Assembly (NCBI GenBank): GCA_036229005.1
Contig: JAZAMN010000013.1
Coordinates: forward strand, 1-49,853
Origin: Myxococcota bacterium
Lineage (GTDB): Bacteria > Myxococcota_A > UBA796 > CAJQPC01
Length of the DNA stretch: 49,853 bases
Direction: 5' to 3'
Shown here: positions 18,049 through 22,516 of the stretch, in pieces
How the letters are laid out: every line of letters starts with the position of its first letter
How positions within the stretch are numbered: position 1 is the stretch's first letter
Notes under the pieces: model-generated
Databases searched by the model: none
Seen by the model: only the letters and a program-made list of their open reading frames with translations
What the model was told of the DNA's origin: nothing
Translations under genes and position numbers: made by a program

Positions 18049-19446
18049 ATGCCTCCCTTTGTTCGCCACATCGAGGGCCACACGCTCACCCTGGACGCCG
18101 GCCCCACCGCCTGGCTGTGGGTGTTGGTCGCGCTGCTCCCGCTCACCTGGGTGGTGCTCGTGGCGGCCTCCGAGCGCAGCGGCCTGCGGGAGGACTGGCG
18201 CCAGCTCTTGCGTGGAGGCGTCGCTGGGCTGGGCCTCATCATCGGTCTGAGCTGGCTGCTGCGGGATGCCCCGGCGGGCAGCGTGGCCCGCTACTTCCCC
18301 GACGCCTACCGCCCCGCGCAGCTCGCGCTCTTTCTGGGCGGCTTCACCTGTGTGCTGCTCGCCACCGAGCTCTTTCTGCGCGCTGGCACCCCCAAGGAAG
18401 CGCCGCGCCCCGTGCTCCTGGATCTGCCCTTCGTCCTGGCCCTCGGGGCGGGCAGCGTCTGGCTGGGGCACCAGCGCCTCCAGGTCCTGGACAGCGTCGA
18501 GGCCATCCCCCAGGTCGCCAAGGTCCAGGGCTGCGAGGCCGTCCAGCAGTTCACGGACTGCGCGCCGGAGCTCACCCTCTACCAGATGGGCGTGAAGACC
18601 CCGTACCGCGGCGCCCTGGGGCTCGTCCCCCGCTGGGACGACATGCGCCCGGTCTCGTTCGCCGAGGACTACCAAGGCAACGGCTGGACCGACCTGCGCG
18701 GCTGGACCATCCCTCCCGTCCAGGTCGACGGCCGGCGCCCCGGGCAGGTCCGGGTGCAGTGGACCGCCAGCAACGGCCCCCTCCAGGTGCGCACCACCCT
18801 GGGCCCCTTCTCGGTGTACGGCGCGCAGGGCGACCCCCGGCTGGCCCTCGCGCCCCAGACCCGCTTCACCTACGTCAGCTACCGCCGGTACCGCCGCCGC
18901 GTGCGCTTCCTCCGCACGGAGCAGTCCACCGGCCAGTGGGCCGACACGCGCATCCAGGTGCTCTCGCCCATCCAGGTGGGCGCCTACCAGGTGCTCCCCT
19001 TGGCGGTCCAGCGCGGCGAGGGCCCCGTCGAGGATGGCGTGCACGTCACCGAGATCGACGGGGAGACGAGGTGGGGGGATGGCCCTGATGGCATCGCGGC
19101 CCACCTCTCCGCTGGCCGGACCCAAGCGCGCCGGGCGCTGCTGCTCTCCGCAGACGAGGACACCGAGGGCCTGATCGCCTGCGAGAGCCCCGTCGTCCCT
19201 GGGGACTGGGAGTGCCTCTGCGACCTGAACGCCCCCGCGGGTCAGGAGCTGGTCCCCGTGCACTGCGGCCACAGCTTGCGACACGGGCTGGGGGAGACCC
19301 TGCTCATGGGCGCCCTGAACCTGTTCACGCTGGGGGCCGTTGGCGGCCTGCCGGAGGTCAGCTACCGGCACACCCTGGAGTCGGTGGAGCTGGGCGCGGA
19401 CCCGCTGGTGGCGCCGGAGCCCGAGGCCCCGGCCAGGGGCCCCTGA
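18049..19446 (+). CDS. hypothetical membrane protein
   Basis: About four N-terminal TM helices and a soluble C-terminal region, no recognised family. Confidence 0.6.
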   Translation: MPPFVRHIEGHTLTLDAGPTAWLWVLVALLPLTWVVLVAASERSGLREDWRQLLRGGVAGLGLIIGLSWLLRDAPAGSVARYFPDAYRPAQLALFLGGFTCVLLATELFLRAGTPKEAPRPVLLDLPFVLALGAGSVWLGHQRLQVLDSVEAIPQVAKVQGCEAVQQFTDCAPELTLYQMGVKTPYRGALGLVPRWDDMRPVSFAEDYQGNGWTDLRGWTIPPVQVDGRRPGQVRVQWTASNGPLQVRTTLGPFSVYGAQGDPRLALAPQTRFTYVSYRRYRRRVRFLRTEQSTGQWADTRIQVLSPIQVGAYQVLPLAVQRGEGPVEDGVHVTEIDGETRWGDGPDGIAAHLSAGRTQARRALLLSADEDTEGLIACESPVVPGDWECLCDLNAPAGQELVPVHCGHSLRHGLGETLLMGALNLFTLGAVGGLPEVSYRHTLESVELGADPLVAPEPEAPARGP

Positions 19447-19986
19447 CTACTGCTCGGCGCGGGCGCGGATGCCCTGGATCTGCTCGGGCAGGTTGTTCTC
19501 CAGCAGCGCCTTCTTGATGAACGCCGGCCCCGAGTCGGGCACGTCCACCCGGTAGTACAGCCGGCTGGCCCCCATCTTGAGGGGCACGGCGTGGTAGCTG
19601 CCCGCGCTCCCGGAGATGTCGTTGTCCTGCGTGTCGTCGGTGTAGTAGCGGACGTAGTGGTTGGCGCTGTCGATCTCGTAGATCAGGTTCATCGCCGCGT
19701 CGAAGCCCATCAGCGACAGGTCGTAGCGCACCGCCTTCTTCTCGGCGGTGTCCTGGTACAGCGTCACCTTCTCGATGGAGCCCACCTCGTCCTTGCGGGC
19801 CTCCACGTCGAGCACGGCCGCGATGACCTCGCTCGGGGGCGCGGCGACGTCGATGACGGCCAGCACAGAGTCCTGGGTGGTGCGCACGACCGGCTTGCGG
19901 GCCGCGAGCGTGGCCTCCTCCGACTCCGTGAGCGTCGGGGCGGTGGGCGGCGTCAGGGCGAGCAGCAGGGTCAGGATGCCGAGCAT
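19447..19986 (-). CDS. secreted SRPBCC/START-like protein
   Basis: Signal peptide, AVIDVAAPPSEV start of the fold, C-terminal helix, GGAGG RBS. Confidence 0.6.
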   Translation of the reverse strand: MLGILTLLLALTPPTAPTLTESEEATLAARKPVVRTTQDSVLAVIDVAAPPSEVIAAVLDVEARKDEVGSIEKVTLYQDTAEKKAVRYDLSLMGFDAAMNLIYEIDSANHYVRYYTDDTQDNDISGSAGSYHAVPLKMGASRLYYRVDVPDSGPAFIKKALLENNLPEQIQGIRARAEQ

Positions 19987-20040: not shown

Positions 20041-20300
20041 GAGGCTACCGGGGCTGAGTGAGCGGGGAGGGGTGGCTACGGGGTGCGAATGAGCGAGTTT
20101 CTGAGGCTACGGGGTCTCAGTGAGCGTTTTGTCCACCGATTCGGCCCTGAAAGCCGGGATTTTGGCGTTCTGGCGGCCGTCTGACCCGAAATCCGCCCAG
20201 ATCGGTCGCCTGATCGCTCACCGAGCAGGCGTAGCCTCAGCGAAGCGCTCATCCAGAGGCCCTAGCCACCCCCAACGCGTCACTCACCCCCCGTAGCCAC
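20041..20300. repeat. symmetric element: three direct plus three inverted 24-bp repeats at 31-bp period
   Basis: Units start at 20041, 20072, 20103 (GWGGCTACSGGG..TGAGCG). Reverse-complement units start at 20215, 20246, 20277. Confidence 0.85.
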
Positions 20301-20320
20301 CAAAACCAACCCGAAACCGA

Positions 20321-20372
20321 CCCCTGACCCCTGATACCCGATACCTGACCCCCGATACCTGACCCCGACCCC
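20321..20372 (-). repeat. heptamer tract (GGTATCR/GGGGTCA) after the MATE stop
   Basis: cccctgacccctgatacccgatacctgacccccgatacctgaccccgacccc. Confidence 0.8.
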
Positions 20373-20376
20373 TGCC

Positions 20377-21726
20377 TCAGACCTCCAACTCCAACCACCG
20401 CCCCCGAATCAACGCCGCGCTCTTGAGCCCCGCCTTCACCCAGGTGCTCAGGTTGATGGCCCACCAGACGCCCGCCGCGCCCATCTCCAGGGGGAAGGCC
20501 AGCGCCCAGGCCAGCGGCACCCGCGTCAGGTTCAGGGGGACGGAGAGCCAGGTCACGGTCTTGGTGTCGCCGGCGCCCAGCAGCGCGCCCTCGCTGAGGC
20601 TCTCCCAGGACACGGTGAGCTGGGAGAAGGCCAGGATCATCGCGTAGCGGGTGGCCTCGCGGTGGACCTCGGGGTCCTGGGTGAACAGGCCGGTGAGGAA
20701 GGCGCCGCCAAAGTAGAAGGCGAGGGAGGCTGCGAGGCCAAGCCCGGTCATGACCGGGGCTGCGAGCTTCACCGCCCGGATGGCGCCCTGTCTGTCCCCT
20801 GCGCCCAGGCTGCGTCCCACCAGCGAGGACAGGGCCAGGCTGAGTCCGTAGAAGCAGGGCCAGGTGAAGCCTTCCAGGGCGGAGAAGCCGATCCCCAGCG
20901 CGGCGTTCACGTTGGGACCCAGGGGGGAGATGGTGGTGCGCAGCATCACCCAGTAGACCGCCGCGTACAGGAACACGCTCAGGGCGGCGGGGCTGCCGAT
21001 CTGCAGGACGCGGCGCAGCTCGGGGCCGGGGCGCACATCGCGCCAGGACACGCCGGTCTCGCGCATCAGCAGCCAGAGGCCCAGGCCCGTGGCCAGCAGC
21101 CGCGAGAGGTTGGAGGCGTAGGCCGCGCCAGCCACCCCCAGGCCCAGGCCGGCGAGCTCTCCGCCCCAGGCGACGCCCGGGTTGTCGAGCATCATCCAGG
21201 GGGTGAGCACGATGTTCACGGCCAGCGAGACGCCCTGCAGCACCATGGGCAGGCGGGTGTTGCCCATGGACACCGAGCACTGGTCCACCAGGGGTGTCAG
21301 GGAGAGGGGGAGGGCGGTCAGACAGATGGCGCGCAGGTAGGCCGCGCAGTGTTGGGCGGTCGCGCCGTCCAGGCCCAGTGTCTGGGCGATGGGGTCGGCT
21401 GCGAGCCAGCCCACGGCAGCGATCCCGGCGGCCACGAGCAGGGCCAGAAACAGCGAGGAGCCCACGGCCTGGCGCCGGCGCTCGGGATCCTGGGCGCCTG
21501 TGGCCCGCGCGACGATGGGACCTGCCCCCGCCGAGGCGAACTGGAAGGTCGAGTACAGCGCGATCAGCACGAACACGCTGGAGCCGATCGCGGCCTGGGC
21601 CTCCGTGCTCAGGTGCTGCACCCAGTACTGATCGACGCTGCGGTAGGCGTTGGTCAGCACGACGAAGGCCATGCTGGGCAGGGCCAGAGAGAGGAGCGCG
21701 CGGAGGGTCAGCGGCGGCACCGCCAC
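20377..21726 (-). CDS. MATE family efflux transporter
   Basis: LALPSM..VDQYWV, GNTRLPM, GVAGAAYA, GAGDTK, about 12 TM. Start is GTG 21726 or 21720, or ATG 21741. Confidence 0.92.
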   Translation of the reverse strand: MAVPPLTLRALLSLALPSMAFVVLTNAYRSVDQYWVQHLSTEAQAAIGSSVFVLIALYSTFQFASAGAGPIVARATGAQDPERRRQAVGSSLFLALLVAAGIAAVGWLAADPIAQTLGLDGATAQHCAAYLRAICLTALPLSLTPLVDQCSVSMGNTRLPMVLQGVSLAVNIVLTPWMMLDNPGVAWGGELAGLGLGVAGAAYASNLSRLLATGLGLWLLMRETGVSWRDVRPGPELRRVLQIGSPAALSVFLYAAVYWVMLRTTISPLGPNVNAALGIGFSALEGFTWPCFYGLSLALSSLVGRSLGAGDRQGAIRAVKLAAPVMTGLGLAASLAFYFGGAFLTGLFTQDPEVHREATRYAMILAFSQLTVSWESLSEGALLGAGDTKTVTWLSVPLNLTRVPLAWALAFPLEMGAAGVWWAINLSTWVKAGLKSAALIRGRWLELEV

Positions 21727-21739
21727 GCTATAGCGCCTC

Positions 21740-22516
21740 ATGGCCTCGCCGACCCCAAGCTCGCGTGCGACCCCCAGCAGCGCGCTGTTCACCGCCGCGA
21801 TCTCCTTCGCCATCATGCTGGTGGCGGGCGCCTTGCTGGGCGTGGTGATGGGCGCGCTGGGGATAGAGGACACGCCGACGCTGATGGCCATCGTCCTGCC
21901 GCTTCAGGGTGTCCTCGTCGGGGCCTTTGTGGTCGCCCGGGCGATGAACACCCAGCAGGGGGCGCGGTGGACCCTGGCGCTCCAGCGCGGTCGACGGCAG
22001 GCCCTCCTCCTGCTGATCCTCCCGGCCGGCCTGGTGAGCGACGCCTTCCTGCAGTGGGGGCTGGAGCACCTCACCCGCTTGAACACCGGCCAGCTCGCCC
22101 TGATGTCCGAGGCCCTGGACACCCAGGGCTGGCGCCAGTGGAGCATGCTCCTGGGCACCGTCCTGGTCGCCCCGCTGTACGAGGAGCTGCTGTTCCGCGG
22201 CTACGTCTTCCGGGGCTTCTCCCGCCACTCCACGTTGGCGGCGGTGGGCGGCTCGGCGCTGCTCTTTGCCGGCTTCCACGGCGACCCGCTCCACGCGCTG
22301 GGCGTGCTCCCCCTGGGGCTGGCGCTGTCGTGGATCCGCTGGCGCACCGAGGCGCTCTGGCCCGCGATCCTGGCCCACATGCTCAACAACTGCATCTGGG
22401 CCGTCGTGGGGCTGCTGGGCCTGGAGTGGTCCGTGGGGCCAATGCATGGCCTGGCGGGGCTCGGGGCCTGCGCGGCCATCGTCCTGGCGGGGGAGTGGGC
22501 GGCCCGCAGAGGCTGA
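21740..22516 (+). CDS. CPBP/CAAX (Abi) intramembrane metalloprotease
   Basis: APLYEELLFRG, FAGFH, AHMLNN. Confidence 0.9.
   Translation: MASPTPSSRATPSSALFTAAISFAIMLVAGALLGVVMGALGIEDTPTLMAIVLPLQGVLVGAFVVARAMNTQQGARWTLALQRGRRQALLLLILPAGLVSDAFLQWGLEHLTRLNTGQLALMSEALDTQGWRQWSMLLGTVLVAPLYEELLFRGYVFRGFSRHSTLAAVGGSALLFAGFHGDPLHALGVLPLGLALSWIRWRTEALWPAILAHMLNNCIWAVVGLLGLEWSVGPMHGLAGLGACAAIVLAGEWAARRG

Follow-up and report, generated by a model that had tools for sequence, protein, structure and literature searches.

A symmetric array of six short sites in an intergenic region of a Myxococcota bacterium raises the question of what kind of element such an array is, whether it moves, in which form of nucleic acid it acts and which protein it might serve. 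The array lies in a window of 49,853 nucleotides (the whole stretch of DNA analysed) from a genome of 6.4 Mb and 70 % G+C, which occurs in marine metagenomes, none of the data sets listed for it being RNA; the names of homologous proteins agree with an origin in Myxococcota. It is flanked by the stop codon of the gene for a MATE transporter (20377..21891, minus strand; PF01554, E 5e-44), 76 bp away, and by the start of a gene for a 179-aa protein (19447..19986, minus strand). Both are host genes outside the element; the label SRPBCC, previously attached to the smaller one, could not be confirmed, since no Pfam family matched at E 0.001. Each arm consists of three 24-nt bipartite units built from the blocks GGCTACG and YSARTGAGCG: 20041..20064 (outer, PWM score 31), 20072..20095 (middle, 31) and 20103..20126 (inner, 35) on the plus strand, followed on the minus strand by 20215..20238 (inner, 28), 20246..20269 (middle, 27) and 20277..20300 (outer, 12, with a degenerate 3' block). 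The arms enclose an 88-bp core (20127..20214) with an A/T periodicity of about 10.3-10.5 bp and a length on the 10.33-bp grid of its family. An ACCGAT box is located at 20135..20140 on the plus strand (per-position conservation 73-92 % over 86 core ends) and its inverted counterpart, read from the sequence, at 20201..20206 on the minus strand. The six units, their 31-bp spacing, the core length and the inverted boxes, all first described in a sequence-only reading, were thus recovered at every position when the sequence was checked. At type-A core ends the slightly longer word CACCGAT (e.g., window 20134-20140) stands where the next unit would start. Base for base, though not in reverse, it is complementary to GTGGCTA, with which a unit starts, and the strong/weak base pattern thereby runs on in phase into the core.

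The array is one member of a large, genome-specific population. Exact matches to the two-block pattern number 223 in this genome, and a longer pattern with one mismatch allowed gave 264 matches, compared with 4 for the reversed control and 0-5 per genome in 21 others of the family. The PWM scan proposed earlier as a check returned 401 units at 66 places, 57 of which carry both orientations; a multi-copy repeat thereby takes the place of the single looping or recombination locus that had also been considered. Two types were distinguished. Type A (GGCTACG...TGAGCG) comprises 45 two-armed copies, including the window element, with cores mostly of 88, 89 or 99 bp, and type B (AGCTACG...TGCGCG) comprises 12 two-armed copies with cores of 16, 37 and 48 bp; the two bases diagnostic for A and B co-occur in 367 of 381 units. 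When intergenic DNA was searched for periodicity without any motif, 135 matches at period 31 were obtained, including 68 known loci. With three further motifs added, the population rose to 124 loci with 856 units, divided into five families, A to E (46, 14, 31, 13 and 20 loci, respectively). Arms hold one to eight units, and a central YSARYG word is common to all five families. Two arms are present at 116 of the 124 loci and point inward in all 116 cases, with none outward; the remaining 8 loci have one arm. G/C skew of the arms showed no correlation with local genome skew (rho 0.11, p 0.43) and is therefore a property of each element. In a Pfam scan of 108 flanking proteins no recurring mobile gene was detected, the neighbours being unrelated host genes; two RAYT-like proteins among those scanned scored no Pfam family. 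Outside this genome, the exact pattern had no match in metagenomes, matched three stretches in GTDB genomes and occurred as six single matches in viral contigs. One of the GTDB matches (L016:1490-1800, a Marinicella MAG) proved to be unrelated: it is a 31-bp tandem repeat that runs for about ten copies beyond the end of a gene.

Comparison with congeners and between copies indicates that the elements have been copied. At the 3' end of the MATE gene, both congeners that possess the gene pair (2/2) have an 11-bp gap and no element. Further sites without the element in congeners are those at NifU/radical SAM (G001), enolase (G003) and PGI (G001, G002); at the tRNA-methyltransferase site the neighbour genes differ in congeners. 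Conversely, related copies occupy unrelated sites: the elements at C20:283378 and C58:1011 have cores 92 % identical, those at C27:33191 and C58:6355 cores 87 % identical, and in both pairs the arms match and the flanks are unrelated. In a trio with cores 82 % identical, the shared sequence extends about 40 bp outside one arm. The 97-98 % identical pairs in families C, D and E lie less than 6 kb apart and in part share flanking sequence, and may therefore be local duplications. Types A and B together have 57 two-armed copies, orthologous sites are empty and whole elements recur at unrelated sites, in support of the earlier suggestion of a non-autonomous dispersed element. Most copies are old: nearest-neighbour core identity was 0.45-0.62 in 31 of 38 type-A cores, and the window copy is found at the identical place in strain X3 with at least six substitutions, those listed being at variable positions. 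Copying is thus, as judged from sequence comparison, real but slow, with motif and phase retained long afterwards. Contig joints were also considered as excision events; most of them arose from paralogous copies matching one another, and they do not enter the count. At the outer end of one type-A element (L066:3001-3302, corresponding to G000:C27:33191), 30 bases, about one unit, are absent in strains X2 and X4, so that unit number varies between strains.

Several inverted binding sites per end are characteristic of the transposons Mu, Tn7 and IS21, and a miniature element of a DDE transposon of this type had been proposed for the window array. Inverted site arrays around a short core, the multiple copies and the empty sites in congeners would all agree with it. 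However, the flanks carry no terminus information (at most 0.16 bit within 40 bases beyond the outer unit, 90 ends), which bears out the noted lack of TG..CA termini, and no target duplication (4.27 versus 4.18 ± 0.14, 45 elements), which had likewise been noted as missing; a common dinucleotide at the ends of copied segments was not apparent by eye. The number of units per arm varies from one to eight, unlike the sites at such ends, and the only DDE transposase among the 108 flanking proteins lies 400 bp off and has its own ends. The gene actually linked to the arrays, described below, is of the HUH/Y1 type. A Mu/Tn7/IS21-type end thus failed on its termini and duplications, and we regard a DDE miniature element as extremely improbable. 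For the transposase noted as missing there is a candidate, an HUH/Y1 enzyme encoded outside the window on another contig.

Which molecule the array addresses can be judged from its spacing. Core lengths of types A and B fall into seven classes with a period of 10.34 bp, i.e. a third of a unit (R 0.98, p 2e-4 versus random lengths), and in the five families together the 21 core lengths, which range from 16 to 130 bp, all keep to a 10.33-bp grid with deviations of -0.10 to +0.23 turn. Within type-A cores, A/T content has a period of 10.3-10.5 bp that is in register with the units, and its power at 10.5 bp is 2.1, compared with 0.22 for shuffled sequences and 0.23 for 1303 intergenic stretches from elsewhere. 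The 31-bp units and helically phased cores agree with the original view that the sites lie on one DNA face. Duplex sites that are repeated in helical phase and recognised by helix-turn-helix (HTH) proteins are known from the DnaA boxes of oriC and from plasmid iterons, and at the bind/nic locus of pMV158 the HUH enzyme RepB binds to repeats in duplex DNA and introduces its nick at some distance. The present arrays share with such initiator arrays the phased duplex sites and a predicted HTH reader. They differ from these single-copy origins in forming about 120 dispersed chromosomal copies with inverted arms.

The same array could in principle be a structured RNA or single-strand hairpin that serves as terminator or mRNA stabiliser, in the manner of classical REPs. 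The window copy folds well (z -8.3), copies are located just past stop codons, and the TGA of a unit is the stop codon of the gene at 9 of 40 nearby gene ends. Yet any inverted motif array folds in this way, which accounts for the good fold of the window copy, and intact elements folded less well than chimeras whose right arm was foreign (-155.7 versus -168.5 kcal/mol, n = 34, p 2e-6). In 45 type-A elements, likeness at variable positions was 0.51/0.49/0.42 for mirror units versus 0.63/0.54/0.51 for random arm pairs. The private features once ascribed to mirror-position units accordingly persist as a rank effect only, the innermost unit having its own family-wide consensus, and do not hold pairwise, mirror units being less alike than randomly paired arms. 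Mirror positions are anti-correlated across type-A elements, and complementarity between them is not kept. Unit hairpins in 191 two-unit windows were no better than in shuffles (-9.6 versus -9.9 and -8.3 versus -8.9 kcal/mol). The word GTAG is present in types A and B and absent from the consensus of C, D and E, and the 32 nt downstream of it in types A and B folded like shuffles (n = 246). A search against Rfam gave no family at gathering score, a match to an miRNA model being rejected (33 bits versus a gathering score of 268), and no terminator-like site was found. Moreover, helical phase is not a constraint on RNA. The proposed functional RNA hairpin is thus contradicted by anti-correlated mirror positions, better-folding chimeras and missing unit hairpins, and an RNA role of this kind appears very unlikely, a side effect of the elements on mRNA being possible. 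Helical phasing, a mirror complementarity below that of random pairs and the lack of hairpins together place the constraint on duplex DNA rather than RNA, and the folding results likewise speak against a cruciform.

The missing enzyme is best sought in a five-member family of 258-284-aa proteins found among the unannotated neighbours of the arrays. All five paralogues adjoin an array, each from a different family; of all 5393 predicted genes, only 205 have an array within 250 bp. The paralogue on contig C27 (G000:C27:37209-37985) has two type-A units 115 bp upstream, whereas those on C52, C32 and C21 adjoin a type-B, a type-C and a type-D array, respectively, and that on C24 adjoins two type-E arrays; the array is on one side of the gene in four cases and on both sides in one. 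The link between C27 and type A comprises two units, cut by an IS110 element at the contig end, and lies below the stricter threshold of the five-family scan; contigs of two other strains continue from the C27 gene region into type-A sequence. Sister proteins pair with sister motifs, the A and B proteins being 69 % and the C and D proteins 68 % identical. By eye, a short inverted repeat with GTGTC/GACAC arms was noticed about 50-130 bp before the start codon of all five genes; it could possibly be an autoregulatory site or a true end.

Assignment of these proteins to the HUH/Y1 nucleases relies on motifs and predicted structure. The Pfam model Y1_Tnp (PF01797) had no match in this genome, a search that missed the diverged genes, and NF047646 matched the paralogues at E 4e-9 with 36.5 and 31.3 bits, under its cut-off of 80. 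The motifs NHVH and YIHLNP are present, and H43, H45 and Y99 are invariant in 119 homologues. In the predicted structure of the 258-aa protein (pLDDT 97), residues 1-151 superimpose on E. coli TnpA-REP 4ER8 (Z 11.4, rmsd 2.5 over 132, Foldseek E 5e-5), to which a sequence profile also matches (E 2e-7). Residues 167-242 resemble DnaA domain IV (1J1V; Z 4.9, rmsd 2.1 over 76), a middling, domain-wide match; 3PVP aligned with the C-terminal part at rmsd 1.9 over 63 columns (E 0.26), and HTH_23 was detected in 12 of the 119 homologues. The candidate for the missing enzyme is hence an HUH/Y1 nuclease, not a DDE transposase.

Among REP-type tyrosine transposases, subclass 2.1 of Quentin et al. (2018; PMC6006769) is described there as the largest class, in about 15 % of species; it is characterized by NHVH/Y[IV]HLNP motifs and a DnaA_C/HTH tail, and equals RAYT Group 1 and the TIRYTs. 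The proteins found here share with it the NHVH and Y[IV]HLNP motifs, a size of 258 aa versus a median of 238, a predicted C-terminal DnaA_C/HTH-like domain and the presence of several diverged paralogues per genome, so that by motif and domain the predicted enzyme fits subclass 2.1.2. According to their text, Quentin et al. found no REP-like sequence beside subclass 2.1 genes and doubted that the HTH tail reads flanking DNA, and Bertels et al. (2017; 10.1101/119735) described the flanks of Group 1 as having weakly repeated 16-mers only. Searches by 16-mer or hairpin would probably miss elements of the present kind, because the middles of the units are degenerate. For the TIRYTs, Di Nocera et al. 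(2013; PMC3733652) reported single terminal inverted repeats bracketing the gene, some families of which are dispersed as dimers or clusters. Dispersal is shared with some TIRYT families; the two-armed 31-bp array with phased core, dispersed in 13-46 copies per family, is not, and helical phasing receives no mention in the article text of PMC6006769 or PMC3733652. No published description of phased 31-bp arrays beside tyrosine transposases was found; supplements of these two articles and subscription papers may list such flanks.

The elements also resemble REPs, BIMEs and REPINs of RAYT groups 2 and 3 as portrayed in PMC8266576 in being intergenic, past stop codons and paired in inverse orientation, and in having one family per enzyme, the nuclease fold, no target duplication and targeting by IS110. 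Characterised TnpA-REPs, however, need a single-strand hairpin and GTAG according to the same article, whereas the present units are non-palindromic, form no hairpin, vary freely in the middle and are fixed in spacing to the helix, with GTAG restricted to types A and B and followed by no stem. Unlike RAYTs of groups 2 and 3, the proteins have a predicted extra HTH domain and reach at best 36.5 bits of the 80 required by NF047646; unlike the near-identical REP populations of active REPtrons, type-A copies are mostly old. Typical units of groups 2 and 3 are palindromes of 20-40 nt with a GTAG guide at the stem foot, and single strands are cleaved at CT/CA in dependence on the repeat. The element is REP/REPIN-like in its spread and enzyme pairing, yet fails REP membership, and is best read as a hairpin-free, helically phased variant of REP/RAYT of the subclass 2.1/TIRYT type.

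Pairing of gene and array was also observed in relatives. Nuclease homologues are present in 58 of 154 genomes of the order, and 69 of about 145 loci listed outside the own genome were fetched with 700-bp flanks, representing 38 genomes. The best flanking period was 31 at 21 of these 69 loci and 62 at two more, in 16 of the 38 genomes and with motifs of their own; the remaining 46 had no period of 31 or 62 at the threshold used. Distant RAYT loci from metagenomes had period 31 in none of 80 cases, and control windows in 3 of 217, all three being arrays of this kind. Restricted to loci with full flanks, the comparison was 20 of 61 homologous versus 0 of 43 distant loci (p 6e-6, kin not being independent). 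Inverted 2+2 or 3+3 arms were recognized at most of 30 loci examined in detail, and core length, obtained at 17 of 27 script-oriented loci, clustered on the phase of the own genome (R 0.62), several of the others being mis-registered. Three relative motifs were searched in five genomes: the first gave 24 units in G002, the second 13 in G001, 28 in G002 and 1 in G021, and the third 19 in G047. Each is dispersed in the genome of its own gene and missing from most of the others, and G003, in which the gene was not found, had no unit of any of the three. On this sequence evidence, the gene-array pairing is, it appears, general in the lineage. Across relatives the motifs follow the protein tree (Mantel rho 0.08-0.18, with several motifs mis-registered); as gene and array are co-inherited, such a correlation is no independent evidence of recognition. 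Homologues at class and phylum level (L302-L311) and L125 showed a flanking period of 51/52, i.e. five turns, at 6 of 10 loci. The four of these arrays inspected are direct tandem runs, some with palindromic units, and not two inward arms.

A further explanation is that the arrays are architectural sites kept by the host, at which a bound protein wraps or loops DNA past gene ends while copying is rare and incidental; the protein could be the RAYT-like one, or else gyrase, a nucleoid protein or a similar host factor that occupies the phased core. Nearly invariant motif blocks in an otherwise saturated sequence are consistent with such maintenance, as is the restriction of the listed substitutions in X3 to variable positions. 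Genomic placement is likewise biased: of 50 type-A and type-B loci flanked by predicted genes, 26 are convergent, 23 co-directional and one divergent, versus 99 convergent and 102 divergent among 397 large gaps genome-wide. Avoidance of promoters is, however, also expected from neutral insertions, the orthologous sites are empty in congeners, and the motifs are specific to lineages, changing together with the gene. Host-kept sites of this kind seem rather unlikely as the main explanation, and are compatible with the preferred one.

Our preferred reading is that the element is probably a duplex platform for the REP-transposase-like HUH nuclease encoded on C27, by which it was likely copied to intergenic sites. 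Copy number, architecture, phase rule, the lack of unit hairpins, the gene beside each family, the pairing in relatives and the TnpA-REP fold were established directly; binding, nicking and copying by the enzyme we infer. The predicted DnaA-domain-IV-like HTH tail would read the bipartite motif in duplex DNA, and each arm would accommodate several protomers along a single helix face; the spacing of units by three turns and of arms by whole turns places all sites there. The A/T-phased core could then bend, so that the arms meet, and the HUH/Tyr site might nick a strand exposed at the arm junction or during replication. The nicked strand would be joined to a new position, with no duplication of the target and in most cases immediately downstream of a stop codon; units may later be gained or lost in the arms by slippage or recombination. 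A broader proposition, to which we assign about even chances, is that a branch of the HUH/Y1 enzymes exchanged the single-strand hairpin for duplex recognition, with a DnaA-domain-IV-like tail as the reader. Such enzymes would assemble helically phased complexes on non-autonomous elements of their own, made of 31-bp units within the order and of 51/52-bp units in distant kin, and one genome would hold five orthogonal enzyme-element pairs. Each paralogue would be a natural specificity variant with its own motif, which allows the five pairs to coexist. If the preferred reading is true, a large enzyme group for which no DNA partner was known would gain one. The array families offer concrete candidate substrates, a prediction of phase-dependent binding and dozens of natural protein-motif pairs, and thereby render the questions of enzyme target and repeat spread directly testable.

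The arrays are themselves targets of insertion sequences. An IS110-family element (NF033542, E 9e-7, from a 54-aa C-terminal piece) is located at contig ends of the genome, with its left end on C22, C29, C58 and C71 and its right end on C15, C27, C29, C48 and C50. The insertion point is the 3' block of type-A units (e.g., L088:6626-6770, L066:7957-8096). All four left ends abut arrays; of the five right ends, two abut arrays, one a partial unit and two only the word GAGTGAGC. The copy beside the C27 gene appears to be absent in strains X2 and X3. The left non-coding end contains words matching both halves of the type-A target, which might act as a bridge-RNA target loop would under the model described for IS110 (PMC11208160).

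Some minor observations concern the surroundings of the arrays. Two type-B arrays are abutted by the contig ends G000:C28:1-140 and C53:1-141, which presumably belong to an IS256-type element. Compared with the congeners G001 and G002, the 179-aa gene beside the window element is inverted relative to the MATE gene (window 18049-19986; one case); the 465-aa gene preceding it was not found in the G001 and G002 loci, and the element lies at one breakpoint. Directly adjoining the element, a heptamer-like repeat run extends over window 20310-20375, and its minus strand contains GGGGTCAG, which fits the motif GGGGWSAS given for TIRYT inverted repeats in PMC3733652. Similar runs are present beside other copies too, and may represent a second repeat linked to tyrosine transposases.
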